From IMG/VR virus record IMGVR_UViG_3300045988_149975: a stretch of DNA of 64,000 nt, one strand, 5' to 3'. The stretch's first letter is position 1; every line of letters begins with the position of its first letter. The notes below the pieces were generated by a model. It saw only the letters and a list, made by a program, of their open reading frames with translations. It had not been told where the DNA came from and ran no database searches. The DNA is from a virus. This document shows positions 8,356 through 63,798 of this stretch, piece after piece. A program made the translations under genes and the position numbers.

Positions 8356-8748
8356 TTATTTGACAGGACAAGTGCTTGCTGCATTTAATTTTACCTCCAA
8401 GTCTGTTAAGTTATCAACAGAACTATCATCTAAATAAACGTGGGCAAATACTTTTCTTGCTCTTAAATTTTCTATCCACCATTTCATACCGTCAGGGAAC
8501 ATTTCTTTTATACGCTCCAAATCATCATTAACAGCGTCAAACTCTAATCCCAACTTTTTACAATAAGAAACTGCCTCATCTAAACTCTTACCACACCTGC
8601 AAGTCCAAAGGATTAATTCGTTCCCTGCTTCTTTTAATTCTATGAGTTTTTCTATTACACATCTACCGCTTTTATCTTCTTTAAGATAGCCAATATTCGG
8701 AAAAGCATTTTCTACGATAGTTCCATCAAAATCTACTGCTATAATCAT
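8356..8748 (-). CDS. HAD-superfamily phosphatase, T4 Pnk-phosphatase-like (DxDGT)
   Basis: MIIAVDFDGTIVEN... motif I and a C-terminal ...VYLDDSSV motif. The tracker ORF extends to 8862 through an N-terminal region that overlaps the RNR 3' end; start at internal M39. Confidence 0.5.
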   Translation of the reverse strand: MIIAVDFDGTIVENAFPNIGYLKEDKSGRCVIEKLIELKEAGNELILWTCRCGKSLDEAVSYCKKLGLEFDAVNDDLERIKEMFPDGMKWWIENLRARKVFAHVYLDDSSVDNLTDLEVKLNAASTCPVK

Positions 8749-8791: not shown

Positions 8792-11671
8792 TTAACATTT
8801 ACTATAGCCACAATTATTACAATAAGCACACTTACCATCAGGAATAAGAGTATACTCACCACATTCAGGGCATTTCATTTTGCCATTATGAATATCATCC
8901 TTTACCTCATGAATAGCTTTCTGCGTTTCCTCTGTAAGTGCTTTTTCAAAAGTATTTTTAGCATCCTCTATAGCTGTCTTATTTTCTTGCAAGTCTTTAT
9001 AAATATCTCTAATTGCACTTGCAATACAAGAAGCGCAAGATTTAGAAATATCTTTTCTACCGCTACGCATTAAATAACTACAAGCAGGACAGTTAGCGTT
9101 GCTTAACTCATCAGCAATATCTAATGCTTTACCACCAAGCCTTAAAGCATAGCTTGTAAGTCTTGCAATAGTAGAAATATTAGCTTGACAGCCTGTTTCT
9201 GCACCTACAAAAACCTCAAAAATGTGATTATCTTTTACATTTACTGTTACATAAAAATTTCTTACACAAGCTGTATGGTAAACAAAAGTGCGCCCCCAAA
9301 GGGATTTCACTCCATTACGTTTAACAGGCTCAAGATTATCTAACTGTCTTGCTTGCATATCATCTACTGTAACAGGTTCTTTAATAATCTCAACTTTTGG
9401 CACATGATTTTTAACTTCTTTATTCTCTACATCAGCACGTTTTACACCATGGTCAGTACCAAGGATATTAATGCGTTTGCAGTTATCACGAAAAATAGTA
9501 ATACCCTTACAACCATTTGACCATGCCTGCAAATAAAGGTTAAAAATATCATCTACAGTTGCACTCTCTTTAAGATTAATAGTAGAAGAAATTGCATTAT
9601 CTACATAAGACTGCATAGTAGATTGTAAATCAACCCTATCCTTGGGGTCAATATCATAAGTATCTACAATATAAGGAAACTTTTCTTTAATCTGTTCAGC
9701 AGTAAGTTCATTGGGATTATAACCTCTAAATTTTAAAAGATTTTCCACTGCAAGCATATTAATATGGAAAGATTTACCTTCTTTTTCAAGAACATGAGTA
9801 GTTCTATCATAAGACACTTGATAGTATGGTTCTACACCACCACTTTCTCTAAAGAGCATTGAAATTGAACCGGTAGGTGCAATACTCAATAAAGTGCCAT
9901 TACGCATATTTTGAGATAAATCCTTTGCCACTCTTGAAGTAAATCTGTACTGAATATCATGTACCATACCACTTTTATCAAATTTTTCTTTGTCAAATTT
10001 ACCAAAACTACCCTTTTCTGCCCCTAATTTTGCAGAAGTGGCATAGGCAGTAGTCTGCATATTGCGCATAATAGATGCTATAAGTTCAATACTTTTTTGA
10101 CTGCCATATTTAATACCCATTGCTACAAACATATCTGCCATACCAAATATGCCTAAACCAATGCTACGCCAATCATCAATACATTTCCTATTCTTATCTA
10201 AAGGTTGAAGTTCATAACCATAATCAAGAATTTCATCTAATGCGGTTACAGCATTTTTAACTGTATCACAGAATCGCTCCATATTGAAATGCGCCGTATC
10301 AGTATAAGGATTATCTACGAAGTTATAAAGATTAATACTACCTAAATTACAAGCATTATACTCTGAACCTGCAAATTCACCACAATTCCCTGTCAAAACA
10401 CCATTGGCAATGAAGGTATGATTTTTAGGCTCATTCATACAATAAACAGTATCAACTACTTCTGCTTCTTCGATAGCTACAACGCTAATTTTAGGGCAGG
10501 CATAAGCTGTTACAATAAAATCAAGGTCATTATTAAAAACAGGATGTTTATACCAATCTAAAGTGTCACCAACTTTTAAATCTTTAGCTTCAACTCTGCC
10601 GACATCCCTCAATACCCATTTATGGTAAGGGGTACACTGAACAGTAGCACCATTAGAGAATTTAATCTTTAAAGTCTTTTGGTCATGCCCTGTTACTTTA
10701 GGAGTAACTTTGCTCCACTCATAACCATTCCAAACTTCTACCTCTTTACCTGCTAATTCCCCAATAGGTTTATACCCCTTTTTAGTAAGAATAAGGGTAT
10801 CACCAGTTACACAAGGGTTTGTAGTATCAATCCTATATTCATTAATAGGATAGCCACTCAATAAGTTACATTCTCTTACATTATCAATAAATAATGCCCC
10901 AGGCTCTCCCCAATCATACTGCGCTTCACAAAATTTCCTAAAGAAATCTCTTGCATTAATTTCTTTTTTAACCTCTTCACCATTTTCTTCATTTTTAAAG
11001 TGCAACTCAAAATTCTCATTACTAATTACACTTGTCATAAAATCATCAGTGAAACATATAGAAATGTTCGCACCCTGAATTTTATCATTATTCTGTTTAA
11101 TAGTTAAAAATTCTTCAATATCAGGATGGTCACAATTCAAGGAAATCAGAATTGCTGCCCTTCTTCCGTTATTTCCAATAACTTCACCAATTACATTATA
11201 GACATCCATGAAGGAAACTGCACCGCTTGAAGTCTTTGCAGAATTATTAACTTTAGCACCCTTTGGGCGAAGGTTACTCAAATTAATACCTGCTCCACCG
11301 CCAAAGCTAAAAATTCTTGCCATTTCCTTACCTACATCAAAAATAGATTCAATGTTATCTTTAGGTGAGGGAAGAATATAACAATTACTTGTTGTGGCTC
11401 TAAATTTTCCTTTACAACCTGCTGCATAAAGTGTTCTGCCCGCAGGTAAGAAAGTACCATCTATAATACTCTCTACCATAAAATCTTGTAATTCTTTTGT
11501 AGAAAAAATACTTGATACTCTTTTAATGAAAGCATTAAATCCTGCATCAAAACCTTCCTGTTCTACAATTTTTAACTCGTCATCGTGCATATATTTTTTC
11601 TTTATAATATTTTGCGGAATTTCATCATCCCACCATACTTTATACATATTTACATTACTAATTCTACCCAA
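8792..11671 (-). CDS. nrdJ: ribonucleotide reductase (probably class II, adenosylcobalamin-dependent, monomeric type) containing a mini-intein
   Basis: Active-site NPC-GE split as ...TTNP / CVTGDTLILT...FIANGVLTGN / CGEFAGSEYNACNLGSINL; no ATP cone; Cys-rich C-terminal zinc-ribbon tail. Confidence 0.75.
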   Translation of the reverse strand: MGRISNVNMYKVWWDDEIPQNIIKKKYMHDDELKIVEQEGFDAGFNAFIKRVSSIFSTKELQDFMVESIIDGTFLPAGRTLYAAGCKGKFRATTSNCYILPSPKDNIESIFDVGKEMARIFSFGGGAGINLSNLRPKGAKVNNSAKTSSGAVSFMDVYNVIGEVIGNNGRRAAILISLNCDHPDIEEFLTIKQNNDKIQGANISICFTDDFMTSVISNENFELHFKNEENGEEVKKEINARDFFRKFCEAQYDWGEPGALFIDNVRECNLLSGYPINEYRIDTTNPCVTGDTLILTKKGYKPIGELAGKEVEVWNGYEWSKVTPKVTGHDQKTLKIKFSNGATVQCTPYHKWVLRDVGRVEAKDLKVGDTLDWYKHPVFNNDLDFIVTAYACPKISVVAIEEAEVVDTVYCMNEPKNHTFIANGVLTGNCGEFAGSEYNACNLGSINLYNFVDNPYTDTAHFNMERFCDTVKNAVTALDEILDYGYELQPLDKNRKCIDDWRSIGLGIFGMADMFVAMGIKYGSQKSIELIASIMRNMQTTAYATSAKLGAEKGSFGKFDKEKFDKSGMVHDIQYRFTSRVAKDLSQNMRNGTLLSIAPTGSISMLFRESGGVEPYYQVSYDRTTHVLEKEGKSFHINMLAVENLLKFRGYNPNELTAEQIKEKFPYIVDTYDIDPKDRVDLQSTMQSYVDNAISSTINLKESATVDDIFNLYLQAWSNGCKGITIFRDNCKRINILGTDHGVKRADVENKEVKNHVPKVEIIKEPVTVDDMQARQLDNLEPVKRNGVKSLWGRTFVYHTACVRNFYVTVNVKDNHIFEVFVGAETGCQANISTIARLTSYALRLGGKALDIADELSNANCPACSYLMRSGRKDISKSCASCIASAIRDIYKDLQENKTAIEDAKNTFEKALTEETQKAIHEVKDDIHNGKMKCPECGEYTLIPDGKCAYCNNCGYSKC
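10385..10813 (-). mobile_element. mini-intein (about 143 aa, no endonuclease domain) inserted at the RNR catalytic Cys
   Basis: Begins CVTGDTLIL and ends ...GVLTGN, followed by +1 Cys of the C-extein CGEF; residues 287-429 of the ORF. Confidence 0.7.
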
Positions 11672-13933: not shown

Positions 13934-13964
13934 TTAAAAAAGAAGCCCCCATAAGAGGGCTTTT
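13934..13964 (-). terminator. rho-independent terminator downstream of spoVS
   Basis: AAGCCCCC-loop-GGGGCTT hairpin followed by a U-run on the minus strand. Confidence 0.4.
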
Positions 13965-14244
13965 AATTTAAACTTGTAAATAATTTAATCAAAGTGCGTT
14001 CTTCACCTTCAACTACAGTAACATCAAATCCTGGGCGCACAACTATATCCCTACCATTTGAAGCAAGAAAACCTCTTGCAACAGCAACTGCTTTTACAGC
14101 TTGTGATAAACTTGCAGCACCTATACAATGTAATACTACATTTGAAGCTACTGTATTGCCCTCACCTTTAAGAGTTTTAGCAATACAGCCTGCAAGAGAT
14201 TTAACATTACTGCTACCACTTACTTTTAATACTACCTCTTTCAT
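13963..14244 (-). CDS. spoVS: SpoVS (stage V sporulation protein S) homologue
   Basis: 93 aa. Strong full-length similarity to SpoVS (VLKVS..SN..SLAGCIA...QAVKAVAVARGFLA...EGEERT.IKL). Locally higher GC than its surroundings. Confidence 0.8.
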   Translation of the reverse strand: MKEVVLKVSGSSNVKSLAGCIAKTLKGEGNTVASNVVLHCIGAASLSQAVKAVAVARGFLASNGRDIVVRPGFDVTVVEGEERTLIKLFTSLN

Positions 14245-14334
14245 TGCCTTACCTTCCTATATTTTCTGCTTATTTATTATACTTTTAATCTACATTTAAA
14301 GCCTCAATTATACATATTTATTTCTATACTTTAT

Positions 14335-14362
14335 ATTATAACATATTTTGATAAAAATTCAA
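14335..14362 (-). promoter_or_regulatory. candidate promoter for spoVS (TTGAAT, 16 nt, TATAAT)
   Basis: Minus strand TTGAATttttatcaaaatatgtTATAAT, about 90 nt upstream of the start codon. Confidence 0.3.
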
Positions 14363-14892
14363 CATTGATTTATAATTTTTTTCTCATCAATAATAGAGAA
14401 AAAATCATTAAATTTCAACATTACAAAATCTTGTGACTTAAACTTTCCTTTTACCTGACTTTGGTGCATTATAAGTACAGGTATTTTTCCATTAATGCAA
14501 TCATTTTCTGCCTGTTTAAACCATTCCTGAACGGAAGTCCATCCATTCTTATGATTTTTAAGTTCTAAATGTAAGAGAAAATTTACATTATCAGTATAAC
14601 ATACTACATCTCCTCGCAAAGCATTATTCTCAATTCCCTTTAAATAACCACCACTTGATGCTGTTCTACCGAATTTAAGTAAAGGAAAAATTTTATTCAA
14701 CTCATTGACTATTTTCCTTTCAAAATTTGCACCTTTAGTTTTAGAGGATTTACCTAAATTGCTTTTTTTAATTTGTTTTTCTAATTTCTCTATTTCAGGA
14801 CTGTCAGGAGCATTTTCTTTCAAGAAAACTAATTTATCTTTTAATAAATCAACCCTACGCATTAAACTTTCCGCTCCTATTACTATCTTCAA
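14359..14892 (-). CDS. putative PD-(D/E)xK nuclease (Holliday-junction-resolvase-like)
   Basis: GDVVCYTDNVNFLLHLELKNHK gives a D...ExK pattern; lies in the recombination/replication module. Confidence 0.3.
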   Translation of the reverse strand: MKIVIGAESLMRRVDLLKDKLVFLKENAPDSPEIEKLEKQIKKSNLGKSSKTKGANFERKIVNELNKIFPLLKFGRTASSGGYLKGIENNALRGDVVCYTDNVNFLLHLELKNHKNGWTSVQEWFKQAENDCINGKIPVLIMHQSQVKGKFKSQDFVMLKFNDFFSIIDEKKIINQC

Positions 14893-15331
14893 AATCTTTC
14901 AAGCGGCGGGAAAGTTCACGGCTCACAAGGAAAGTACCATCTTCATAAGATTTAAGAATATCACTTAAATAATCATACTTTTCAAGTGCATATTCCATTG
15001 CTTTCCTACTCCCCTCTGCAAAAGAGTCATTGAATACCCTTAACTCTTTTTCTGTTACACTCATTCGTGGAGGACATTCTGAAAATACCCTGCATTTCTC
15101 TTTATCAAAAATTGATTTAGCTTCCCTATATACCGCCCTTGCATCACTCATAAGTGTTCTTACATACATTCTCTGCTGCACAATAGCATTAAGATATTTA
15201 CTAATATCTGATGTGGATAAAATAGTTAAATCCTTGGGCAATGTAAGATAATCAATTTCTACATTTTTATTATTAAACAATACTACCCCATCTTCCTGTA
15301 ATTCTTTCTTAATTCTTTCTATATTTGTCAT
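14855..15331 (-). CDS. hypothetical protein
   Basis: 158-aa ORF. Confidence 0.45.
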   Translation of the reverse strand: MTNIERIKKELQEDGVVLFNNKNVEIDYLTLPKDLTILSTSDISKYLNAIVQQRMYVRTLMSDARAVYREAKSIFDKEKCRVFSECPPRMSVTEKELRVFNDSFAEGSRKAMEYALEKYDYLSDILKSYEDGTFLVSRELSRRLKDFEDSNRSGKFNA

Positions 15332-15339
15332 AACTTACC

Positions 15340-15855
15340 TCACTTATAATTTGTGGAAAACATTATTCCTACTGCTGATGTTTCACCATCTGTCATTCCC
15401 CAAGCATGGATAGGAGAATGTCCTAACCTCAAAGTTGCTATTCCTGCAACCTTTTTATTAGTAGATATGCCTACACCCACACCCCATGTTGGCTCTAAAG
15501 GTTTATTATCAATACTTAAATTATACTTACTTTCCTGCTTTAAACTTACATAATCCCTGCCATACTCAAATGTATCTTTATTTTCAGGCTTTAAGTTAAA
15601 CCTTTCACCGTTTAATTCTACATCAAAAGTTTGTTTACTATTATAAACTAAATCAGGGTCAGAAGTGTTCTTTTTAGTTTGAACACTCACTGACGCTGTA
15701 TTTTCCGTTCTGACAACTTCAGTTACTACAGGGGTACTAACTACCCTTTCTATAACTTTCTCACTTGTAGGTGGATTTATGTGGATATAAACGGCATATA
15801 TAATGCAAACTATTGCTATTATATAAGGTAACGTGTCTTTAATTTTTTCCCACAT
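15340..15855 (-). CDS. membrane-anchored protein (N-terminal TM helix)
   Basis: 171 aa; IIAIVCIIYAVYIHI hydrophobic segment. Confidence 0.4.
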   Translation of the reverse strand: MWEKIKDTLPYIIAIVCIIYAVYIHINPPTSEKVIERVVSTPVVTEVVRTENTASVSVQTKKNTSDPDLVYNSKQTFDVELNGERFNLKPENKDTFEYGRDYVSLKQESKYNLSIDNKPLEPTWGVGVGISTNKKVAGIATLRLGHSPIHAWGMTDGETSAVGIMFSTNYK

Positions 15856-16054
15856 TTACTTTATCCTTAAAATTAAAGAATAAACTAACAAGCAGGGTAT
15901 AGAACACTAAATAAAAGAAGTATAAATTAAGCCCTGTAAAATGTGAAGCACCATAAGCTGCTACTACAGTCCACAAACAAGCTGCCACATATACAGTTCC
16001 TACTACAATAGCCATTAAAAGTACAATAACTAAACCCATAAGTAAATATTTCAT
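15839..16054 (-). CDS. small integral membrane protein (2 TM)
   Basis: 71 aa, almost entirely hydrophobic. Confidence 0.4.
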   Translation of the reverse strand: MKYLLMGLVIVLLMAIVVGTVYVAACLWTVVAAYGASHFTGLNLYFFYLVFYTLLVSLFFNFKDKVNVGKN

Positions 16055-16921
16055 CTAATTTCCCCTTTCACACAAATCTTTAAATGCACACCATTTACAA
16101 TAACGTGTATTATCCTTTTTAGGAATGATTCCTTCTGCTACATACTTATTAATCTCCTTACAACGATTAAGCAAATCACTAATTAAATCTCTATCCCATT
16201 CAAAGGGAAATTCCTTCAATTCTTGTGTATCTTTACATTCATAAAGAAAAATAATCTTTCTAATAGGTTTAGGATATTCCTCTAAAAGTTCAAGAGTTTT
16301 ATCAAAGATTGCCATTTTCTTTTCCAACTTCTGCTCTTTTGTATATTTTCTACCATCCTCTAAAAAACTCTCTAATTTAGTTTTATAAAGATTTCTTAAC
16401 CATTCCCCATCACCTAAAAGAACTTTTTTACGCATTTCATCTAAACAATACATATATAAACTTGCTTGAAGTTTATGTTCAGGTTTTGCATCAGTTAAAG
16501 CATTAAAACCGTTACTATTAATACTCTTAATTTCAAGTATTGATAACCTGTCACTATCTTTAAGTAAACCATCTGTATTACCCATTACTTCATATTCCAC
16601 ATTAAATACAGGTGCCTCATCAAGTAAAAGTACGCCTGCTTCTTTTAAATAACCTTGTAATCTCTCATGTACAAAAGTGCCATTATTTAAAATGCGGAGG
16701 GAACGTGGGTCATCATTAGCATTAGTCTTTTTAGCAAAACAACGGTTATAATAAGAAGCCCTCATGCAACCTCCTATACCACTTGGACTATTCCATCCAT
16801 GCCCCCTATCCTCTGTTCCGCTATCCTTCATTAAAAGCATATCAATAGCAGGAATTAACAGGCTGTTCTTTGTAAGTGTATTTAAAGAGGGAACACTTCC
16901 TACTACTTTAAACTTCTTCAA
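16055..16921 (-). CDS. PD-(D/E)xK exonuclease, Cas4/RecB-nuclease-like, with a 4-Cys cluster
   Basis: N-terminal Cys plus C-terminal CKWCAFKDLC; DGLL...LEIKS (D..ExK). Confidence 0.55.
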   Translation of the reverse strand: MKKFKVVGSVPSLNTLTKNSLLIPAIDMLLMKDSGTEDRGHGWNSPSGIGGCMRASYYNRCFAKKTNANDDPRSLRILNNGTFVHERLQGYLKEAGVLLLDEAPVFNVEYEVMGNTDGLLKDSDRLSILEIKSINSNGFNALTDAKPEHKLQASLYMYCLDEMRKKVLLGDGEWLRNLYKTKLESFLEDGRKYTKEQKLEKKMAIFDKTLELLEEYPKPIRKIIFLYECKDTQELKEFPFEWDRDLISDLLNRCKEINKYVAEGIIPKKDNTRYCKWCAFKDLCERGN

Positions 16922-17367
16922 ATTACTGCTACCTCCTTAAAATCCTCTAATCTTGTTATCTGCCAAACTGCACCACCGTTGAATCTATACAAATATAAAT
17001 ACCCCACATCAATATAATTTAAAATATCAGCAGAAAGTTTAGAACTCTCCTTGCAATCTAATACATCACTCTCATTATAGTAATTATAAAAATCATAAGC
17101 CCTATAAGCAATATAATCTTTATCTTTAACTCTTATTGCAAGTAAGGGTATTCTATTACATTTAAGTGCCTCATTCTCAATCTTGCTTAAAATCTTCCCC
17201 TTTAAAATGTAATAATCTTTTTCAGTTGCTTTACACTCAATTAAATAATCATCTGTTACTACATCACCTTTTGCAAAATATAATGCGCCTGAAGCTATTA
17301 CTGTTTTTCCACCTAAACTTTCTGCTATAAATGTTTCATGCTTATTACTTAACTTCTTCGGTTTCAT
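16918..17367 (-). CDS. hypothetical protein (possible nuclease fold, D...ECK)
   Basis: 149-aa ORF. Confidence 0.4.
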   Translation of the reverse strand: MKPKKLSNKHETFIAESLGGKTVIASGALYFAKGDVVTDDYLIECKATEKDYYILKGKILSKIENEALKCNRIPLLAIRVKDKDYIAYRAYDFYNYYNESDVLDCKESSKLSADILNYIDVGYLYLYRFNGGAVWQITRLEDFKEVAVI

Positions 17368-17677
17368 CTTTCACATCCTCTGGTTTCCAAAAACAACAAA
17401 ATGTTCTACCTTCCTCTGTTACCATATCAAAAGGGGTAACAAAAGAATTTTGGCAGATGTCATTTTCGTCATAATATTTACAACTCTCACACCTTGAAAT
17501 GAAATGGGCAGCTTTCATTAAGGCTACATAAAGCCTTGTATCATAGCCTACATGAAAATCCAATACCTCACCTCCTTTATTGTAACTCTTGATAAGCAAA
17601 TTCACCAAAATATTTGAGTTCACCTGCTCTCCTTGCTTGTTTAGCCTCTTCCTCTGTTGTATAACACCATAGTTCAC
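17345..17677 (-). CDS. hypothetical protein
   Basis: 110-aa ORF. Confidence 0.4.
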   Translation of the reverse strand: MNYGVIQQRKRLNKQGEQVNSNILVNLLIKSYNKGGEVLDFHVGYDTRLYVALMKAAHFISRCESCKYYDENDICQNSFVTPFDMVTEEGRTFCCFWKPEDVKDETEEVK

Positions 17678-23051: not shown

Positions 23052-23642
23052 TCACATAACCACCTCCTGTTTTATTCTAAAAAATACTTTTACGCCATCA
23101 ATTACAGAACATCCTCTGTTACTACTAATAGTATGCCCTCTTATCATAGCGTGTACTATTGACTTATCTTTATTAGGAAATAAGGTACGAGAAGCAGCCT
23201 TACTGCTCTTAAAAGTAGCTAATACCTCATTACTTTCCACAGAAACCATCTCAACTGGTTTTTCAAATAACCTATGTAACTTTTTAGCGGATATTCTTGC
23301 TTTCTCACGAACATTCTCTCTTAAACCGATATTCCACGAATGTAATAAATTATCTTTGTTTTCTATCCACTCTAAATTTTCAACATGGTTATTTAATTTA
23401 TTACCGTCTTTATGATTTACTTGTGGTAAATTTTCGGGGTTAGGTATAAATGCTTCTGCTACTAAACGATGTACCCTTTTAGGATAACACTTACCATCTT
23501 TAGCTAATGCTACCTGTAAATAACCCTTTGTAGTTGTGTTTGCCATCAAACACCTCTCTTTATTATACTTATGAGATATTACTACCCCTTCATCTGTAAC
23601 AGTATAATCAGGAAAATCTTTTACAATAGCTTCTATAAGCAT
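23052..23642 (-). CDS. HNH homing endonuclease (NUMOD4-HNH type)
   Basis: NHKDGNKLNNHVENLEW motif; own promoter; close paralogue of ORF 57615..58145. Confidence 0.75.
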   Translation of the reverse strand: MLIEAIVKDFPDYTVTDEGVVISHKYNKERCLMANTTTKGYLQVALAKDGKCYPKRVHRLVAEAFIPNPENLPQVNHKDGNKLNNHVENLEWIENKDNLLHSWNIGLRENVREKARISAKKLHRLFEKPVEMVSVESNEVLATFKSSKAASRTLFPNKDKSIVHAMIRGHTISSNRGCSVIDGVKVFFRIKQEVVM

Positions 23643-31748: not shown

Positions 31749-33148
31749 TTATGCCCCTAATTTTTCCACAATCTCATCTTTTGTAAAACCAAGGTTTTTA
31801 TAAAGACTCCGTGGATTTTCTACATATTCGTATTTTAAAATGGTAGTCTTACCATTTTCTTCCATTGTTTCATATTTAACTGTATCTGTATTCTTGCCTG
31901 CTTTTTCTACCTCACCTGCATAAATCCAAATATAATCATCAAATAATAGATTACCCCATAAAGGCTTCCAAACTTCCTCGTTGAAATTTTCTGCCATATA
32001 ATAGTAATCCTCTTTAGAACTTAATACTTTTGGTATACCTCTCATTAATAACTCAATCCTTTCTTTAACAGAATCTAATTTTATACTTTTACGAAAATTA
32101 TAGGTATTTGCCCACTTCATCCAACCTTCTATACTGGCTACCATACCTCTTGCATAGTCCAAATCTAAATCAGCAGTCTTTAATAGACTATCCAATTTTC
32201 TAAACCTGCGTTTTATCCTTTTTGCTGTACTCTTTCTTAATAAAACACAGTTGTTAGGAAATGTCCTATAACCAAGAAAGTCTACACCTTGCGTTATAGG
32301 AAATACATTACTTTTACTTAATAACAGGTTTAACTTATCATAAGCAAATACCTTCGCTTTTTCAGCTACCTCATGTAACTCCTTCTTATCATTACCGAAA
32401 ATTATAAAATCATCACAATACCTTATATATGCACTACATTTTAAATCATACTTTATATAAGTGTCTAATTCATTCATGTATAGATTACCAAACCACTGTG
32501 AAAGATAATTTCCAATAGGTACGCCCGCCTTTCTATGACCAAATTCCTCTACATATCTTTCAAGTTTTCCACGCATTATATCAGCATCTTTACGCCCTTC
32601 AAAATTCTTCAAATAACCTATATTAGCTTCTCTTGTTGCAAGGCTATCTATTATTATATCAAGAATACTTAATAAATCTTTATCTTTAATCTTTTTACGC
32701 AATATTATTTTCAATATTTCATGGTCAATATTTACATAAAATTGTGAAATATCAAGTTTAGCACAATACTTATACTTTCTTACATATTCAGAGCATTTTA
32801 TCATTCCCTTATGCTGCCCCTTACCTTTACGACAAGCATAACTATCATATATAAATAAACTATCCCAAATAGGCTCTAACACATTCATTATAGCATGATG
32901 TACTATTCTATCAGGATAATATGGAAGTACATAAATTAAACGCAATTTAGGCTCATACATTGAATAAATCCTATAAACGGAGTTCTTATAATTTCCATCC
33001 ATTAAATCTTTTTGTAATGATAATAGGTTAGCTTCCAAATTTTCTCTTACTTTAATAACCTCTGATAAATTTCCTTTACCTTTTCCTGCTTTTAATTCAG
33101 CAATTTTAAGATTTTCAATATCAATAATTCTATTCCAAAGATTTCCAT
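31749..33148 (-). CDS. diversity-generating retroelement (DGR) reverse transcriptase
   Basis: YIRYCDDFIIFG (YxDD); PIGNYLSQWFGNLYMNELD, the DGR-specific IGxxxSQ signature; N-terminal NLWNRIIDIENLKIAELKAGKGKGN. The conserved N-terminus extends upstream of the tracker start at 33038; see findings. Confidence 0.8.
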
Positions 33149-33397
33149 ATCTTCGTATTTGAAAAACACCCTCTCTATTAAAAAGTTTAACAAATTGGCA
33201 CTCTTTATAAAGAGTGCCAAAATGCTATTTAGGTATTTAGGTAAATTGATTTTCGCCTTAACTACTAACCCCTTTACCATCCTGTAATGTGTTTCTGCTT
33301 TCGCAGAGGATAGAGATTCAGCCGAAGGATTAGCTTTATACCTATTGTATGATACCTTCGTATCACTACAGCTACGCTCGCCGTTGTTAGAGTTCAC
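33092..33397 (-). CDS. doubtful ORF overlapping the TR and the RT 5' end (no convincing Avd features)
   Basis: 101-aa ORF; its C-terminal third overlaps the conserved RT N-terminus in another frame. Confidence 0.15.
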   Translation of the reverse strand: MNSNNGERSCSDTKVSYNRYKANPSAESLSSAKAETHYRMVKGLVVKAKINLPKYLNSILALFIKSANLLNFLIERVFFKYEDMEIFGIELLILKILKLLN

Positions 33398-33481
33398 ATT
33401 CGCTGAAGCATTATTGACATTAACTGAACGAGAACTGCAACTCGAACTGTTATTCCAGTTACTGCCGAGTTTCGCCTTTAT
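33362..33481 (-). repeat. DGR template repeat (TR)
   Basis: About 120 bp, near-identical to the VR except at roughly 25 positions. At every one of those positions the TR carries A on the minus (transcribed) strand. Confidence 0.75.
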
Positions 33482-33611
33482 AACCTCTACCCTTTTAGTT
33501 GCAACTATTTATATATATAAATTGGGGGTACGAGATGGTTGTCTACATTACCTCTCCAAGTTTATATCAACTTAAACACCACATTAACTTGAATTAATGG
33601 GCTACGCCAAC

Positions 33612-34673
33612 TCAATTCCCAAGTTTATGGAGCGGCTCACCACAGCCACGCCCGCCGCTGAAAGAGTCCACAAGCGCCGAAGCACCATTGACATCAACCG
33701 AACGAGAACCGCAACCCGAACCGCCACCCCAGAGACCGCCGAGCCTCGCCCTGTACAAAGTACCATAGCTTCTACCATAAGACTGGTCATCTACACCACT
33801 ATTATATACAGAATCATTCCAACCACTTGAACCGTTTACACCAACATCACTTGCCCATTGCCATAAGAAACCACAAGCATCTTCAAGCCCATAATTACTT
33901 ATCATTCTTCTGCCCGCTGTATCAACGTGTCCACCAGTTGTATTGGCATCTGTACTACCTTGTATATTAGTACCTTCATTACTTCCTTTTGCCGCCACCT
34001 GAAACTCATATCTCCACGGCAATCTTTTCTTTATATCAGCAAGTCTTTCTACAAACTGTTCACCATGAAATTTCTTTGTAGAAGCACCATCTGCTGTTGT
34101 TCCACCATTTACACTCACAAGTTTACTTCCATTCCACGAGTTTAAGTAAATGTCCATCCATATATCTACTTCAGGAATATAAACCATTCCTTCAGGTGAA
34201 CATTTTGGGCGATGAATTAAATCCCATACTGATTGTGGTAATATATCACCTGCTACATAACCACTTAATGTATGCCCGCTTATCGTACCCACATTTGTAC
34301 ATAAACAATGGAAACCACCTATTTTTCTACTATTATCTGCATTATAACCATTAGGTACAGTAGAATTTAAAGATAATACAAAATCTAATCCATTATTTTC
34401 TACTGCATACACATAAACATCTTTACCGTTTCTATTTGCCAAACTTAAAGACAATGTTTTATCCATATCAGTAGAGTATACATTATCATTTATTCTTAAA
34501 ACCATCCCCGCAGGTATTGTTACAGTAGTCTTATTTGTAGTCATTAAACTTTTTCTATTAAAATAAGTATCAATATACTTTGCCAAAATTTCTTCACTAA
34601 AATTTTCACCATCTATTAAAGAGTTTAAATATGCTCTAATTGTTTCTACCCTTAAATTATTTAATTTATCCAT
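33612..34673 (-). CDS. DGR target protein: tail fibre / receptor-binding protein with a C-type-lectin (FGE-like) fold VR at the C-terminus
   Basis: 353 aa; C-terminal ...YRARLGGLWGGGSGCGSRSVDVNGAS... is encoded by the VR; lies in the tail-fibre gene block. Confidence 0.7.
   Translation of the reverse strand: MDKLNNLRVETIRAYLNSLIDGENFSEEILAKYIDTYFNRKSLMTTNKTTVTIPAGMVLRINDNVYSTDMDKTLSLSLANRNGKDVYVYAVENNGLDFVLSLNSTVPNGYNADNSRKIGGFHCLCTNVGTISGHTLSGYVAGDILPQSVWDLIHRPKCSPEGMVYIPEVDIWMDIYLNSWNGSKLVSVNGGTTADGASTKKFHGEQFVERLADIKKRLPWRYEFQVAAKGSNEGTNIQGSTDANTTGGHVDTAGRRMISNYGLEDACGFLWQWASDVGVNGSSGWNDSVYNSGVDDQSYGRSYGTLYRARLGGLWGGGSGCGSRSVDVNGASALVDSFSGGRGCGEPLHKLGN
33636..33755 (-). repeat. DGR variable repeat (VR) at the 3' end of the target gene
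   Basis: Matches the TR 33362-33481. All mismatches are TR-A to VR-G/C/T on the coding strand; locally GC-rich. Confidence 0.75.
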
Positions 34674-40064: not shown

Positions 40065-40736
40065 TTACTCCCCCTTATACGCAAATTCACCAAACAACTC
40101 TTCTCTTAACTCTTTAGCGACTTTTGCTGCTTCCTCTTCAGTGTCATAACTGCCACCATAAAAACGCTTACCATCTTTGCTACAATACGCTTTCCATTTA
40201 CCCGTTTCCTTATTATAAGAATAACCCTTACGCCTATGATTCATATTGTTTTGCCTTACTGTACAAATTCTTAAATTGCACTTCCTATTATCTGCTTTAT
40301 CGTGGCTAATATGGTCAACTATCATTCCTTCAGGGCAATCCATAATAAACCTGTTTAAACGAATATGTGTATGTGTAGTTTGCCAATAACCTTTAGAACC
40401 TAATGTAAAATAATGCGGTTTTACTTTCTCAATATCCTCCGTATCTATTAAAGTATAATTTCCCTTATTATCATACATTTTTGTAACTTCACCATCTATA
40501 TAATATGTGTTATAAGCCCTGTTCTTTAAAGAAATTGCCTTTCTCATATTACAACCACAAGAAGTTGTACTACCTTGTCTTAAAGAACGATATATAACAG
40601 GTTTTACATTTCCACAATCACATTGACATAAAACCTGCGCTTCAGTATTGCCTGACTTTGTAATCTTGTCAGGCAATAATCCAATAATTTCCATTCTACC
40701 ATATCTTTCCCCAATTTGAGGAATAATCTTTCTCAT
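40065..40736 (-). CDS. HNH homing endonuclease with a C-terminal AP2 DNA-binding domain
   Basis: Cys-rich N-terminus; HNH region MIVDHISHDKADNRKCNLRICTVRQNNMNH; AP2-like KWKAYCSKDGKRFYGGSYDTEEEAA. Confidence 0.7.
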   Translation of the reverse strand: MRKIIPQIGERYGRMEIIGLLPDKITKSGNTEAQVLCQCDCGNVKPVIYRSLRQGSTTSCGCNMRKAISLKNRAYNTYYIDGEVTKMYDNKGNYTLIDTEDIEKVKPHYFTLGSKGYWQTTHTHIRLNRFIMDCPEGMIVDHISHDKADNRKCNLRICTVRQNNMNHRRKGYSYNKETGKWKAYCSKDGKRFYGGSYDTEEEAAKVAKELREELFGEFAYKGE

Positions 40737-55922: not shown

Positions 55923-56258
55923 TTACGCAGTTTCAATTATTACGCCATGTGTAGGATTAAGAACTGCTGTACCCCAAATGCCATACCAAGCAATCTTAAC
56001 TTCACGCCCAAAATCTTCAGTATCATCTGTACGAATTTCAGGGGCTAAAGATTCTGCAAGTGCATAATAATCTTCGCCAAAGATTACTGCCTGATATACG
56101 TTAGCACTGGAAGCACCTGCGGCTTTAAGTTCTGCTACATAGCCTAAATCGCTTTCAGCAGCAGCACCATTAGGCATAATGGTTGTTTCAATAAAACGAA
56201 CATCGTCAATTCTACCGATTTCCAATCTGTTACTATGGGCGGTAAATACCCATTTCAC
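55923..56258 (-). CDS. major capsid protein (HK97 fold), 3' exon
   Basis: ...AVIFGEDYYALAESLAPEIRT...KIAWYGIWGTAVLNPTHGVIIETA matches the HK97-family C-terminus. The tracker M is GTG; the exon probably begins 1-2 nt inside. Confidence 0.65.
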   Translation of the reverse strand: MKWVFTAHSNRLEIGRIDDVRFIETTIMPNGAAAESDLGYVAELKAAGASSANVYQAVIFGEDYYALAESLAPEIRTDDTEDFGREVKIAWYGIWGTAVLNPTHGVIIETA

Positions 56259-56358
56259 TTACTTTATGTAAGCGGGGGCGTACTTCTATGAGTGTCTTTA
56301 CACTCGACTGCCCCTCTTATGTTCACACATAAGGTCTGACTATCTCTTTACCCCTTTC

Positions 56359-57246
56359 TTATGTTCGAGGTATCTCGTGTATAGTCGATAGACTTTTTTC
56401 AGATAATTTATAACTCATTGATTTTGGTATAAATTCTTTTATGTAGTCGCAAAACTTTGTAAAACTTTTTGAAGGTATTCTTATCATCGGATAACCACAT
56501 TCAAGCTGAACATAGGTTTCAATTTTAATAATTTCATTTAAAGAATTGCTCAATAACTGACACTCCTCAATAGTAAAACAACAAGTTGCTATCTTACCCC
56601 AATTTCCTTTACCTTTACTACCATCATCTGCATACCATATAGCGATTGATAAAGGATTGAGCATTTCCTTAATGTTATTAGGAATAATCTTTGTTTTACC
56701 TTTATAGAACATTTCCCTTAACTGTTTTATATCTCCAAAGGCTTTTGTCCTTTTCCTAACCGATTGATAACCTTCTTTAGTTTTTCTATAATAACTACTG
56801 CTTATATCATTGCCAAAGAAACTTGCCTTATAGTTTAAGTAATCTTCTTGTTTAAGCGAATGACTTAAATAAAGTACCCTTCCATCAAGATAACCGTCAC
56901 CTAAAATGCTACCAATTACAACACTTCTTTGATTATCTGTTAAGTGCTTATAATCACTTTGTACAGCAGATATGCCATAATGTGTTAGCCATTTTGTAAC
57001 TGTACTATTCTTTACATTAAACTTTTCGCCGACATCTTTCTTCCTACCACCATTTTGAAAAACCTCTAATATCTCCTCTTTCGGTGGTATATAAGCAAAA
57101 TGTTCAAAAGTTCCTAACTTATACTCTTTAACAAGTCTTTTTATAACTTTTAAACTTACACTAAAATGTTTTGCAACTAATTTCTGACTTTTTAAGTCAT
57201 TATATACTTTTTGTAAATCTTCTTTTGCAATATAAATCTTTTTCAT
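56359..57246 (-). CDS. LAGLIDADG homing endonuclease (two-motif, intron-encoded), N-terminal HTH
   Basis: VIGSILGDGYL and SIAIWYADDGSKG motifs; its stop lies between P8 and P7' of the downstream intron core. Confidence 0.8.
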   Translation of the reverse strand: MKKIYIAKEDLQKVYNDLKSQKLVAKHFSVSLKVIKRLVKEYKLGTFEHFAYIPPKEEILEVFQNGGRKKDVGEKFNVKNSTVTKWLTHYGISAVQSDYKHLTDNQRSVVIGSILGDGYLDGRVLYLSHSLKQEDYLNYKASFFGNDISSSYYRKTKEGYQSVRKRTKAFGDIKQLREMFYKGKTKIIPNNIKEMLNPLSIAIWYADDGSKGKGNWGKIATCCFTIEECQLLSNSLNEIIKIETYVQLECGYPMIRIPSKSFTKFCDYIKEFIPKSMSYKLSEKSLSTIHEIPRT

Positions 57247-57614
57247 TATAAATTACCTTCCTTTAGTACGGTATTACCCCTCTGGGGTTCACTTTCTATA
57301 TACATAGTATTATAGGCTTTTTAAAGCCAACCGTTTAGCGAGATGCTTTGTACTTGTTTTTATTCAAGCACAACGGCAAAATCTACCGTTAAATAACTGT
57401 TCAGGCGCACCATAGTTGCTCGCATTACAGCACTATTACTTTCACCCACTATGGTAAGGGTTACTGACTAATATCTCTATTAGCGGGGCAACTGCTTCTC
57501 TAAAGTGTCTTTACACTTGAGTCACCCTCTTATGGTTTCCCATAAGGTTAGACTATCTCATCCCCCGATTTTTTACATCGGGGGCTTCGTCCATAGTCGT
57601 TGCAAGGGTATCAA

Positions 57615-58145
57615 TTAAACATATTCAAACCTATACGTTCCTAATAATACATTATTTCTTAACAATGCAGAAGTTATTGATGGGTATTTAAGATTGAGTT
57701 TCTCTGACGCTTCTCTCGTACTATTAAACTCAAACTTTTCTCCTGTTTTTATATTCTCACATTTAATTTTGCGACTTCTATGTTTTATACCATTTTCTCT
57801 CGCCGCTTTGCTATGTGCTTCTGTCATAACATTTATCAGACCATGTGCATAAGCGTGTCTAATATTATAACTTGAATCACACCATTCTAAATTCTCAACG
57901 TGGTTATTTAACTTGTTACCATCTATATGATTTACTTGCGGTAAATTATCAGGGTTAGGTATAAAATTCATTGCTACAAGCCTATGAATTTTCTTTGAAT
58001 GTTTACCATCCTTATCATATAAGTTTACATATAAATAACCGCCTTTGTTGACAGTTTGAACTAAAAACTTTTGTGTAAATGTGGAATATACCCTTCCATC
58101 ATCATAAATATAATAATTTTCAAAACCTTTAATTTTTCGTTTCAC
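57615..58145 (-). CDS. HNH homing endonuclease (NUMOD4-HNH), intron-encoded
   Basis: IPNPDNLPQVNHIDGNKLNNHVENLEW, near-identical motif block to ORF 23052..23642; followed at once by the intron P7-P8-P7'-P9. Confidence 0.8.
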   Translation of the reverse strand: MKRKIKGFENYYIYDDGRVYSTFTQKFLVQTVNKGGYLYVNLYDKDGKHSKKIHRLVAMNFIPNPDNLPQVNHIDGNKLNNHVENLEWCDSSYNIRHAYAHGLINVMTEAHSKAARENGIKHRSRKIKCENIKTGEKFEFNSTREASEKLNLKYPSITSALLRNNVLLGTYRFEYV

Positions 58146-58279
58146 TTACGTTACTCCTCTCTTTATGTTTAATCTTAACCTTCTCACAGGATTGGCATGA
58201 CTTTTCAGTTTTAGCTTTCCCTGTTTTCACGAAGTTTAATCGAGTACATTACTGTACAAGTGGACTAATGCTAATGGCT

Positions 58280-58972
58280 TTATGCCACTCTTTCAATCCA
58301 TTCAGGGCAATCTCTCAAATCACGGCTCTGATGAGGATGAACAAATGCGATATAATAACTACCATCAATTTTCGGTGCATTATTAGTAGAAAGAATTTCT
58401 ACTGCATCTTTAATAGTAGCTACTGTAAGGGTATTTACACCTGCTGCTAATTGATTACGCTGTGTAACTTTAGCACCGTCTTTCTGTCTACCAAATACTT
58501 TAGAAGTACCACTGCCACCTTTAACAGCTACATCACGCAGTTCCAGTTCAAGAGTAGTTACATAGTTTCTTGCTAACTGACGCATTGCAATTTCAAGTTC
58601 GTTTACAAAGGAGAAACGAATTGCAGCTTCAGTAATCATTACAGCAGTACCATGTTCTACTACTTTAATGGATTTAGTGCTGGAACTTAAAGTCTGTGTT
58701 TTAATGTGCTTACCTTCTTCAAGAGGTGAAGATACTTTTAAATTATTATAAGTAAGCATTTTAATTTCATTACCAGGATTTACAGTTAAATCCGTTTTTC
58801 TTGCCGCAAAATCATAAAAGCGATACACAGGCTCTGACAGGAAAAGAATTTCTCTGCTCAAAACAGGTGCTAAAGAATTTACTAACTGTACGGCAGTACC
58901 ACTATCCAGTTCAGTATCAGTAGTCTGAATAATAGTATTGATTTCATTGCCAAGCGGCCATTTTGTTGCCAT
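58280..58972 (-). CDS. major capsid protein (HK97 fold), 5' exon
   Basis: ...AAIRFSFVNELEIAMRQLARNYVTT...SYYIAFVHPHQSRDLRD... matches the central part of HK97-family capsid proteins; ends in a stop at the intron boundary. Confidence 0.65.
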   Translation of the reverse strand: MATKWPLGNEINTIIQTTDTELDSGTAVQLVNSLAPVLSREILFLSEPVYRFYDFAARKTDLTVNPGNEIKMLTYNNLKVSSPLEEGKHIKTQTLSSSTKSIKVVEHGTAVMITEAAIRFSFVNELEIAMRQLARNYVTTLELELRDVAVKGGSGTSKVFGRQKDGAKVTQRNQLAAGVNTLTVATIKDAVEILSTNNAPKIDGSYYIAFVHPHQSRDLRDCPEWIERVA

Positions 58973-61386: not shown

Positions 61387-63798
61387 TCACCACCTTATCC
61401 TATGATTTCTTCTGCCTACAAATATATTCCTCTTTGTAGTCTGTATAAACTCATTGTTATCTACTACTTCAACTTCCCCAACATCATGCTTTAATCCCCA
61501 TACCATTAAGGCAGCACTAAATGGGTAATCATCATGTTTATTTCTTTCTTTAGGGGCAGCCACTACAAGTTTATCGCCCCTATAATCCTTTGTAAGTTCA
61601 AGACATTGCTCTTGAAATTTCCTATACTCAATAGTATCTTGTGCGCTCGAACTTGATGGATAGTGAAAACATTTATTATTAAGGTATGCACTAAAATTTT
61701 TCATTAACATACTCTTACTTGCAGGGGTAAATACAAAAGGTATCACTGGAAAATCTACATTAGCTGCTAATCTATCAGCTACTGGACTTCCTACACCGCT
61801 TCCATCTATAACACATAACTTGATATTAAATCTATTCAAATAATCCTTTACTTTATAAAACTGCTCTTCATAGTTGTCACCAACTATTTCCAACCAATCT
61901 ATTATCTTTATGTCATAAAGTACATAATCCTCTGCATCATACTCTGTTGCCTTTTCTAATACCACAGGACTTTCATAATTCGGAATACCTATTGTTACTA
62001 CTGTACTATCTTGTGATTTACCAACATCAATACCTGCTATGCAAACTTGATCTTTACAATAATCCATCCTATCTAATGTAGAATCTGCAACAGGGTCAGT
62101 AGTAAATAACTCTCCGTCAATGAACATACCAAACTGAAATACCCATTTCAAGCAGTTATGACTTGCAAGCCCCTCTGCTATAAAGGTATGTGTTGATGTT
62201 CTAATAGGAATTACTTTTCTATTACCGACAAATTTAACGCTTGTAACGTGAGGGTGTATATCCCTACCTAATTCACCATTTGAACATCTTAAAGTGCCCA
62301 AAGTATTAACATCAAGATTTTCAAGTAACCTTTTAGGTCTTACCATTCCTAAAAATTTGAGGGTTTCCCTCTTACCACCTGTTATTATGAGTCTATAAAC
62401 ATCATCTTGGTTTCTTTCAGCATATATAGGACTTGTATAATAACTATACTCAAATCCATATTTATCTAAACACTCTTTAACGTGCTTGAGCATTGCATTA
62501 TCTCTTTGTGCAAAACAAAGTTGTTGCAATCGCCCATCTGCGTGTCCTACATTACCTTCACCGTCAAAAGCAGCAGCTAAATAACCTAAATCATAATCAC
62601 TTTTTGGCATTTCCCATTTATTCAAAATTTTATATGCCCTATCAGTAAGTTTGAGGTCTTTAGTTTTTCTCCAACGTGTCAGTCTACCAGGTGTCATTAC
62701 AAGCCACTGATGCTCCTCCGAACAAGTAACTTTAGTACCATCCTCAAAAGTTACCTCATAACAAGGTCTTTCAATCTCACCTACATCTTCTACAATAGCT
62801 TCTCTGTATTTACGCTGTCCATATTTACCAGGTTTTTCCTCATCAAAACCTAATAATTTGTCGCCAACTTTAATAGAATCTGCTCTTACCCATCTTAAAT
62901 CTGCTGTAAGAATTTCCGTTTCAGGTGCAACACAGTAGTTCATTTCAAATTCCACACTGTTTTCACCCATTATCTTTTTAGCAGCTTCTACTGTTTTAGC
63001 GTATTTAGGATTATATTTAATAATCGTTTCATAGTTATACTCAAAATGATTTCTCTTTTTCTTGCCATTTTCATATTCTTTTTTATTTAATTCAATAGCA
63101 TCATAAAAAAAGTTTTTCTTAATTGACGGCGTACCAATAAGAATTTTAGTACCATTATAGAATGATACAGTAGGAAATATGGATTTCCTGTATTTATAAT
63201 TACTAATATCCTGTGCTTCATCACAAACATATAAATGGTATGAACCACCTTCAATGTTTGAACCGTCACTTGCTGAAAAACAAGTTATGGAAGATTTAAC
63301 ACCTAAATTATTAAATACAATAGTTACTCTCTCACCATTAAAAGTATCTTTAGTAATATTAAATTCATCACTTTCTAATATCTCTATTGCTCTTTTTGAT
63401 GATAAAAAATCTTTAATATTATTAAAGATAATCCTCGCCTGCGCCAGTGTTGGCGCAAATACGCCCATCATAATACCATTTTTAAACGGCTGTAAACGTG
63501 TATCATCTGCAAATAATGGCATATTAGCAAATACAGGTAGTATTACCATTAAACCTGATAATGTGGCTGATACTGTAAAACTTTTACCACTCTGTCGGGA
63601 CATAAGAGAAGTTATAGTGTCAGGGTCATTTGAAAGTACACCTTCGATAATTCTCCTACTAAATTGTGCTTGATGTGGAAAGAACTTTCTACCAGTCAAC
63701 ATTTCACAAAAAATCTGTATCTTACGAGTTAGTTCAGAAGTTTTAAGTGTTCTTCCTGTATAAGTAATAATATCACCACCTACATAACAAAAAACCAC
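61387..63798 (-). CDS. terminase large subunit containing a full-length intein
   Basis: Walker A SRQSGKS, Walker B HLYVCDEAQD, C-terminal nuclease domain. An intein lies between EFEMNY and CLKWVFQF. The true start is probably downstream of the tracker GTG, which sits inside a hairpin. Confidence 0.85.
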   Translation of the reverse strand: MVFCYVGGDIITYTGRTLKTSELTRKIQIFCEMLTGRKFFPHQAQFSRRIIEGVLSNDPDTITSLMSRQSGKSFTVSATLSGLMVILPVFANMPLFADDTRLQPFKNGIMMGVFAPTLAQARIIFNNIKDFLSSKRAIEILESDEFNITKDTFNGERVTIVFNNLGVKSSITCFSASDGSNIEGGSYHLYVCDEAQDISNYKYRKSIFPTVSFYNGTKILIGTPSIKKNFFYDAIELNKKEYENGKKKRNHFEYNYETIIKYNPKYAKTVEAAKKIMGENSVEFEMNYCVAPETEILTADLRWVRADSIKVGDKLLGFDEEKPGKYGQRKYREAIVEDVGEIERPCYEVTFEDGTKVTCSEEHQWLVMTPGRLTRWRKTKDLKLTDRAYKILNKWEMPKSDYDLGYLAAAFDGEGNVGHADGRLQQLCFAQRDNAMLKHVKECLDKYGFEYSYYTSPIYAERNQDDVYRLIITGGKRETLKFLGMVRPKRLLENLDVNTLGTLRCSNGELGRDIHPHVTSVKFVGNRKVIPIRTSTHTFIAEGLASHNCLKWVFQFGMFIDGELFTTDPVADSTLDRMDYCKDQVCIAGIDVGKSQDSTVVTIGIPNYESPVVLEKATEYDAEDYVLYDIKIIDWLEIVGDNYEEQFYKVKDYLNRFNIKLCVIDGSGVGSPVADRLAANVDFPVIPFVFTPASKSMLMKNFSAYLNNKCFHYPSSSSAQDTIEYRKFQEQCLELTKDYRGDKLVVAAPKERNKHDDYPFSAALMVWGLKHDVGEVEVVDNNEFIQTTKRNIFVGRRNHRIRW
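62155..62934 (-). mobile_element. intein (260 aa) with a LAGLIDADG homing-endonuclease domain, in the terminase ATPase domain
   Basis: CVAPETEILT N-terminal splicing block; YLAAAFDGEGNV LAGLIDADG motif; C-terminal THTFIAEGLASHN, then Cys+1. Confidence 0.8.

Follow-up and report, generated by a model that had tools for sequence, protein, structure and literature searches.

A compact LAGLIDADG intein in the large terminase and a mini-intein in the ribonucleotide reductase of an uncultured phage: allelic states and probable mobility

Introduction

Does the large terminase gene (TerL) at one end of a 64,000-nucleotide (nt) stretch of viral DNA encode, within the enzyme, a protein element that splices itself out and spreads among related phages, or is the 260-amino-acid (aa) segment concerned a native part of the terminase? 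The stretch, IMG/VR virus record IMGVR_UViG_3300045988_149975 and here called the window, belongs to a phage that is uncultured and AT-rich (33% G+C), with a genome of roughly 95-100 kb, and its coding is almost entirely on the minus strand. A first-pass annotation made from the letters of the sequence proposed one intein in TerL, starting with Cys1, ending in SHN and followed by Cys+1, and a second, of 143 aa and lacking an endonuclease, in the class II ribonucleotide reductase (RNR) gene of the same window; the coordinates of both (Table 1) and the TerL junction residues proved exact. The two are very probably real inteins, that in TerL of class-1 type with a LAGLIDADG unit and that in RNR an endonuclease-less mini-intein, with splicing and homing as proposed below. 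Splicing, endonuclease activity, dimerisation and the site of cleavage are what we infer from the conserved residues and the fold, from relatives and from patterns in the population.

The terminase and its insert

In the TerL precursor Pfam finds Terminase_6N at aa 65-274 and Terminase_6C at aa 640-758, and the portal gene lies directly downstream. The nearest cultured terminase, in a protein-level search of a phage collection, is that of Bacillus phage BCD7 with 49% identity; megablast of the TerL and RNR genes against the same collection gave no match for either, so that neither has a close cultured relative there. The ATPase motifs are readily located (Walker A SRQSGKS, aa 67-73; Walker B LYVCDE, aa 189-194; C-motif GTPS, aa 222-225) and all are well upstream of the insertion point. 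An AlphaFold2 (AF2) model of an intein-free allele, with a mean predicted local distance difference test score (pLDDT) of 80, matches the terminases of T4 (gp17), HK97, D6E and Sf6 and the P74-26 ATPase domain, the last aligned over about 284 columns. In this model Tyr288 comes right after helix 282-287, the ATPase domain's last, and is followed by a loop, with the nuclease domain starting at about residue 321. The insertion point therefore falls at the edge between ATPase domain and linker, outside the catalytic motifs, and the earlier description of an interrupted ATPase domain holds for its C-terminal edge, after Tyr288, while the catalytic core is untouched.

After translation the junctions read ...EFEMNY/CVAPETEIL...EGLASHN/CLKWVF (here and below a slash marks a junction or insertion point). 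The intein begins with Cys1 and ends Ser258-His259-Asn260, after which comes Cys+1, the first codon of the C-extein (62152-62154). At this position Lys, Leu, Arg or Asn is found in intein-free alleles, and not Cys, so that splicing would leave a Lys-to-Cys ‘scar’ that must have come with the intein. Block B is S72-E-E-H75 with W77, Ser being in place of Thr, and position 4 of block F is Pro, with Ala in relatives, where Asp is usual. In an alignment with 28 homologues C1, H75, W77, G125, E126, G127, H259 and N260 are invariant, which shows conservation of the splicing residues and of the presumed catalytic Glu.

Pfam recognizes Intein_splicing in the insert and LAGLIDADG_3 once, at aa 401-476 of the precursor (E 1.5e-8), and in NCBIfam the whole insert aligns to the intein portion of a radical SAM model that contains an intein. 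An AlphaFold prediction from the 28 homologous inteins (pLDDT 91.8; predicted template modelling score, pTM, 0.87) has a beta-rich HINT splicing domain made from residues 1 to about 105 and about 216 to 260, between the halves of which sits one alpha-beta-beta-alpha-beta-beta-alpha unit, residues 114-205. The LAGLIDADG motif of this unit is G117-YLAAAFDGEG-127 with Glu126 as putative catalytic residue, and in the model both the LAGLIDADG helix ending in a conserved acidic residue and the expected core fold are present. With this model as query Foldseek places TliVMA, PI-PfuI and PI-SceI on top, with many mini-inteins after them. Among inteins a LAGLIDADG module with two motifs is usual. The first-pass annotation spoke of a full LAGLIDADG intein; the motif is there, and what carries it is a single unit of about 100 aa and not a two-motif module. 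Taken together, the predicted HINT fold, the splicing-block residues and the in-frame insertion without counterpart in near-identical alleles support the identification of the TerL insert as an intein.

Occupied and empty terminase alleles

The same 803-aa TerL protein was met again in a large protein search (P0001), which also returned three proteins (P0002-P0004) that are 98-99% identical to it and have a length of 543 aa, precisely that of the spliced product, with Lys replacing the +1 Cys. The gap in BCD7 TerL falls exactly at aa 289-548, and that protein has Asn at the position of the +1 Cys. An independent recovery of the occupied allele comes from run ERR14040145, where contig L005 has a TerL and intein differing from those of the window by 3 aa and 22 nt. 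For comparison at the DNA level the empty gene of contig L003 (10001-11632) served as reference. Over its 1632 positions the window extein DNA shows 55 differences, 23 of them within 100 nt of the junction where 6.8 would be expected (binomial p 4e-8); such clustering is what co-conversion of the flanks at the intein’s arrival would be expected to produce. Presence and absence among close relatives, coupled with flanks that appear co-converted, are evidence pointing to mobility of the TerL intein.

The site equivalent to Tyr288 is occupied in about 85 of 120 listed TerL homologues, a count biased upward as the list was fetched with intein-containing queries, and the inserts are of 260/261, 254, 216 and 158-176 aa, the 216-aa and 158-176-aa forms indicating that endonuclease-less derivatives exist there. 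Inteins at this site share 60-68% identity, against no more than 39-43% for the C-exteins next to them. The empty site holds a 22-base-pair pseudo-palindrome, AGTTTGAAATG/AATTATAAACT, that spans the insertion point, with its centre 6 nt away. At least 8 of 11 symmetric pairs are found at 3 of 1610 centres in the TerL gene, and two of the three are within 12 nt of the insertion site. A sequence of this kind would suit a homodimeric enzyme, though as a post hoc observation it is suggestive only.

The TerL family at large is an intein hotspot, with at least five sites at reference residues 69 (Walker A), 74, 194 (Walker B), 205 and 288. Junctions in homologues are SRQ/C...HN/SGKS at the Walker A site and EE/C...HN/CQD at the Walker B site, and up to three inteins occur in one terminase (P0041, P0058, P0086, P0095 and others).

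An exhaustive search of 1.84 billion representative proteins with the TerL intein gave 2336 proteins at E ≤ 1e-10 and 533 representative clusters at E ≤ 1e-30. Nearly all of the best 150 matches span residues 1-260 within about 245-275 target residues, in host proteins of 379-2494 aa; among ten sampled hosts, three DEAD/Helicase_C_2 helicases, one family A DNA polymerase and one DnaG-type primase could be recognized. The spread across 533 clusters and varied hosts means that a compact intein of the TerL type is common and has colonized many genes.

The ribonucleotide reductase mini-intein

The RNR precursor matches Pfam Ribonuc_red_lgC (E 1.9e-102), TSCPD and Intein_splicing, is named NrdJ_Z by NCBIfam (447 bits, above cut-off) and aligns with the sequence of the Thermotoga maritima NrdJ structure, PDB 1xje, at E 2e-71. 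The alignment with 1xje runs up to C322 and resumes at N320-P-C-G-E, which places the intein between Pro and Cys of NPCGE, and after translation the junctions are ...IDTTNP/CVTGDTLIL...NGVLTGN/CGEFAG. NPCGE had been named as the site from the outset, with the junction put at NPC/GE; it is NP/CGE, and so the finger-loop Cys is itself the +1 residue. In class II enzymes this Cys, at the finger-loop tip, is the thiyl-radical residue and, since it doubles as the +1 nucleophile, the reductase cannot be active until it has been spliced. Alone, the intein scores 40.6 bits against Pfam Intein_splicing (gathering score 35.8), and NCBIfam intein_Nterm and intein_Cterm match the insert above their cut-offs. 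In both Pfam and NCBIfam the matches are to splicing domains only and no endonuclease domain is found, in agreement with the original description of it as endonuclease-less. Its sequence supports the identification of the insert as a mini-intein.

Counted by exact length among 120 listed RNR homologues, 46 clusters of 959 aa carry the 143-aa mini-intein and 39 clusters of 816 aa, which is the spliced length, are empty, at 95-98% identity. Two others (P0173, of 1132 aa, and P0174) have at the same place a 316-aa intein with two LAGLIDADG motifs, YTAGFYCGDGT and YLAGLIDSDGC. Sister phages thus show three allelic states, empty (L007), with the 143-aa mini-intein (the window) and with the 316-aa LAGLIDADG intein (L006), and the DNA flanking the site, ACAAACCCT/TGTGGTGAATTT, is identical in all three. 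The mini-intein aligns to both ends of the 316-aa inteins, minus the two-motif LAGLIDADG middle, with 97% DNA identity over the first ~250 nt and 99% over the last ~70 nt; next to the missing middle the sequence has diverged. A simple deletion of the co-circulating 316-aa intein is accordingly only partly right as an account of its origin. Given this divergence, and the presence of the mini form also in lineages at 68-70% protein identity, it is an old, established endonuclease-less form and no fresh deletion.

Cys1, block B T61-P-Y-H64, Asn143 and Cys+1 are all present in the RNR intein and conserved in its family. Its terminus, T141-G142-N143, has Gly and not His in the penultimate position, and all relatives seen end TGN or TGQ. 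A penultimate His is common in inteins and not obligatory. Some inteins without it still splice, as stated in a review citing Chen et al. The RNR intein has Trp at B:12 (W66), Cys at F:4 (C125) and Thr at G:5 (T141), with block positions numbered after PMC5222942, and a Trp-Cys-Thr triplet at these positions defines class 3 inteins (PMC5222942). The triplet is kept across the family, alongside invariant Cys1 and Cys+1 (L008 and L009 included), and in two members, P0237 and P0240, Trp is changed to Phe and Thr to Val together. The C-terminal 21 residues presumably align without gaps to the F and G blocks of the Ssp DnaB intein. Use by the RNR intein of the class 3 route, in which Cys125 of block F and not Cys1 would attack first, has these features in its favor, and 3 of 37 triplet-bearing inteins do have Ser1 or Cys1 (Tori et al., PMC2807308). 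We nevertheless regard it as improbable: class 3 is defined by a missing N-terminal nucleophile, while here an invariant Cys1 is present, along with Cys at +1; at F:4 Cys is overall the second most frequent residue (PMC4031507); and THN is the normal end of class 3 inteins, TGN or TGQ that of this family. As Cys1 is invariant, and the absence of an N-terminal nucleophile that marks class 3 is not what is found, the RNR intein is filed as class-1-type. Triplet-bearing inteins with Ser1 or Cys1 were reportedly tested by Tori and Perler in the Journal of Bacteriology in 2011. With its Cys1, class-3-like triplet and no penultimate His, the RNR intein would be convenient for testing how the splicing classes relate.

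Proposed mechanism and alternatives

According to the proposal TerL would be made as an 803-aa precursor with a 260-aa class-1-type intein after Tyr288. An N-S acyl shift at Cys1 would be followed by transfer of the N-extein to Cys+1, cyclization of Asn260 and an S-N shift, giving a 543-aa terminase, with Cys for the Lys of empty alleles, and free intein. Two free inteins would then most likely pair through their single LAGLIDADG units, in the way of I-CreI-type enzymes, and the pair would cut the empty TerL alleles of co-infecting relatives at the pseudo-palindrome spanning the insertion point, the predicted cut being within AGTTTGAAATGAATTATAAACT of the empty allele. Repair would copy the intein plus about 100-150 nt of flanking terminase sequence. 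In the RNR gene the mini-intein would be the endonuclease-less counterpart of the 316-aa intein that sister phages have at the same site and, by occupying that site, would destroy the presumed target of the 316-aa intein’s endonuclease.

Several points weigh against so complete an account. Splicing and cleavage of these two particular proteins are deduced, and the residues bearing on splicing are not all the standard ones, with no Asp at block F position 4 and Ser not Thr at block B position 7 of the TerL intein, and no penultimate His in the RNR intein. The lone LAGLIDADG unit could be no dimerizing enzyme but a half-remnant without activity. The higher identity of inteins than of exteins could reflect slower evolution of the intein and not transfer, the occupancy counts have the upward bias mentioned above, and the palindrome statistic is post hoc in a sequence that is AT-rich.

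The most serious competitor grants that the TerL intein splices and holds that its LAGLIDADG unit has decayed, with persistence due to vertical descent and general recombination instead of homing. In its favor, there is just one LAGLIDADG unit, where intein endonucleases usually have two (as do the 316-aa RNR intein and those of BAKA and Bethlehem; PMC5050341), and the 158-216-aa derivatives at the same TerL site show that endonuclease decay does occur in the family. Against it, a length of 250-261 aa is kept across lineages that are ~47-68% identical, with G125-E126-G127 invariant, and the 533 clusters, with mostly full-length matches of the same size among the best 150 and varied hosts, fit a mobile element. 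Presence and absence at 98-99% extein identity with substitutions clustered at the junction, and the pseudo-palindrome at the site, also argue for homing, and with these points taken together loss of the endonuclease seems unlikely, roughly one chance in four. Far less credible is that the inserts are native domains, non-splicing HINT domains of the bacterial intein-like kind or assembly artefacts. Alleles of spliced length at 95-99% identity exist for both genes and lack exactly these segments, so that the inserts do not align as native domains in intein-free homologues, an alignment that by the first-pass annotation would have refuted its reading; they are absent from BCD7 TerL and T. maritima NrdJ; the +1 Cys and terminal Asn are present whereas bacterial intein-like domains are described in the literature as having no +1 nucleophile; and the same intein-bearing proteins come from many independent samples. 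Two inteins, with homing of the TerL element by a paired single-unit endonuclease, is the reading that best accommodates these observations.

Other homing elements and features of the window

Four additional homing endonucleases had been proposed for the window, and Pfam bears this out with three HNH proteins and one LAGLIDADG_2 protein (Table 1). Including the inteins the total of six homing-type elements in that proposal also holds; a six-frame jackhmmer scan of the window seeded with the four endonucleases, both inteins and I-TevI found no further copies. The HNH open reading frame (ORF) in the primase/replicative helicase interval is a paralogue of that in the first capsid insert, and the endonuclease encoded among the tail genes bears an AP2 DNA-binding domain.

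Table 1. Location of the inteins, their host genes and the other homing-type elements in the window
Feature	Coordinates	Strand	Basis
TerL precursor ORF, 803 aa, GTG start	61387..63798	minus	ORF list; Pfam Terminase_6N + Terminase_6C
TerL N-extein (aa 1-288), ATPase domain	62935..63798	minus	alignments; AF2 model of intein-free allele
TerL intein, 260 aa (precursor aa 289-548)	62155..62934	minus	exact junctions, intein-free alleles
Single LAGLIDADG endonuclease unit (predicted) in TerL intein (intein aa ~106-215)	62290..62619	minus	
TerL C-extein (aa 549-803 + stop), linker + RNase-H-like nuclease domain	61387..62154	minus	alignments, Pfam, model
Class II (B12-dependent) RNR NrdJ precursor ORF, 959 aa, TTG start	8792..11671	minus	Pfam, NCBIfam, PDB match
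RNR mini-intein, 143 aa (aa 287-429), no endonuclease	10385..10813	minus	exact absence from 816-aa alleles; Intein_splicing
Free-standing HNH endonuclease gene, primase/replicative helicase interval	23052-23642	minus	Pfam HNH_3 E 2.6e-8
Free-standing HNH-AP2 endonuclease gene among tail genes	40065-40736	minus	HNH_3 E 1.1e-8, AP2 E 7.8e-8
Major capsid gene, three exons 58972-58295, 57426-57385, 56222-55923	55923-58972	minus	alignment to L005
Capsid intervening sequence 1, ~868 nt, with HNH ORF 57615-58145	57427..58294	minus	HNH_3 + NUMOD4
Capsid intervening sequence 2, ~1162 nt, with LAGLIDADG_2 ORF 56359-57246	56223..57384	minus	Pfam E 1.5e-31

The major capsid gene is interrupted twice, its middle exon being a micro-exon of 42 nt. 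Contig L005, the same that carries the TerL intein, has an uninterrupted capsid gene for 339 aa (7693-8712), and in-silico joining of the three exons of the window gives a 339-aa protein 96% identical to that intact version. Once the boundary of the first insert is moved by one base, each insert is preceded by U and has G as its last base, which is the group I boundary rule; that rule alone fits, and Rfam reports no group I core in the whole window at gathering score or in the capsid region at E ≤ 1. The earlier description of two of the endonucleases as intron-borne thus has the uninterrupted L005 gene and the restored frame on its side and lacks an Rfam group I match. In L003, where TerL is empty, the capsid gene is split too (14047-17409), with LAGLIDADG_2 before HNH_3, the reverse of the window. 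The combinations in L003 and L005 show that the six elements assort independently among relatives.

The window also has a diversity-generating retroelement at 31749-34673 on the minus strand. Its reverse transcriptase is at 31749-33038 (RVT_1) and its target gene at 33612-34673 (Mtd second domain), with a variable repeat at ~33637-33750 and a template repeat at ~33363-33476; in a wider 141-nt comparison 35 of the 47 differences between variable and template repeats are at template adenines. Genes of L006 and L007 that are syntenic to window 7512-8090, 12904-13545 and 13963-14244 have the Pfam labels QueC, Radical_SAM and SpoVS, the labels being those of the L006 and L007 genes. QueC and Radical_SAM there hint at 7-deazaguanine metabolism, and SpoVS at a spore-forming Firmicute host.

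Significance

Phage terminases and RNRs are well-documented hosts of inteins (PMC5050341; PMC3653736; bioRxiv 10.1101/2025.01.02.630785). Cultured phages already have inteins of both families, and the two described here are ordinary members of well-known families. No concept is changed by them and the value is in the material, as occupied and empty alleles at 95-99% identity are available for both genes in public metagenomes, and homing sites, co-conversion tracts and endonuclease loss can be read from sequence. For RNR, sister phages between them cover the three states of the homing cycle.

In the literature searched no description of single-motif LAGLIDADG inteins was found, an absence that is not proof of novelty. 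Compact inteins of 250-270 aa, that of TerL included, may form a large undescribed class of intein endonucleases, each with one LAGLIDADG unit and active only when two excised inteins pair, on pseudo-palindromic sites; we put this forward tentatively, at somewhat less than even chances. Were it true, the population would be a natural snapshot of every stage of homing at two essential genes, and the compact one-unit TerL intein, if active as a dimer, would be a useful and poorly documented architecture. Specialist interest attaches to that single-unit endonuclease architecture and to the three-state RNR polymorphism. At a practical level gene callers will mis-size or split the TerL, RNR and capsid genes in this phage group unless the elements are recognized.

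Comparison with known systems

Of direct relevance to the TerL intein is the Pham3880-g intein of the cluster C1 (Bixzunavirus) mycobacteriophages, such as ScottMcG (gp245), Cali (gp243), LinStu and LRRHood, which is carried in terminase-like proteins and is 35-36% identical to it over its whole length. At 269 aa it is close in size to the 260-aa TerL intein, its parts come in the same order, with YLAGFMDGEG as the motif, and the two have in common Cys1, the HN terminus, a Tyr at -1 and the lack of Asp at block F position 4. The Pham3880-g intein spliced in a MIG reporter assay (Kelley et al. 2016, PMC5050341), and the Cali intein, which is of the same phamily as the one that spliced, has Ala at that block F position. 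The differences are that its +1 residue is Ser, whereas TerL in the window has Cys, and that it comes from an actinobacteriophage while the window is from an AT-rich, uncultured phage with its nearest cultured TerL in Bacillus phage BCD7. Its host protein has no similarity to the window TerL detectable by BLASTP (E > 2), and an equation of the two insertion sites was dropped as the exteins have no detectable similarity. Read by eye, the Cali intein comes right after a C-motif-like SSPY; such a reading is no test and does not agree with the description in PMC5050341. Inteins in the portal proteins of Gordonia phages (Newt, Luker, Guillaume and others) are 34.6% identical over the full TerL intein, and relatives borne by terminase and portal indicate that this intein lineage has moved between genes.

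The homodimeric LAGLIDADG enzymes I-CreI, I-MsoI and I-CeuI are free-standing or intron-encoded, whereas the TerL unit is embedded in a HINT domain and its dimerization and cleavage are only predicted. PI-SceI, PI-PfuI and TliVMA, the best Foldseek matches, do have the arrangement of HINT with LAGLIDADG seen in the TerL intein; they are of 360-450 aa with two LAGLIDADG units in contrast to its one, and PI-SceI has an additional DNA-recognition region. The template modelling (TM) scores with these three are low (0.4-0.5) because the TerL intein has no second half.

For the RNR intein the counterparts are in the class Ia NrdA of cultured phages (CcrColossus gp143, RSL2, RSF1, FLC6 and Nitrincola phage 1M3-16), with 37-46% identity. 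They are inserted directly before the radical Cys (SNL/C.../C-x-E), a site homologous to that of the window RNR, and share with its intein the unusual ends, VYC or TYC in block F and a terminal TGN or TGQ, the class of host enzyme being Ia NrdA in those phages and II NrdJ in the window. In the Ralstonia and Burkholderia jumbo phages (RSL2, RSF1 and FLC6) the junctions are SSNL/C...TGQ/CLEV, with a terminal Gln where the window RNR intein has Asn. In Caulobacter phage CcrColossus gp143 they are QSNL/C...TGN/CTEI, in a 299-aa form with an endonuclease that is annotated as an intein in GenBank.

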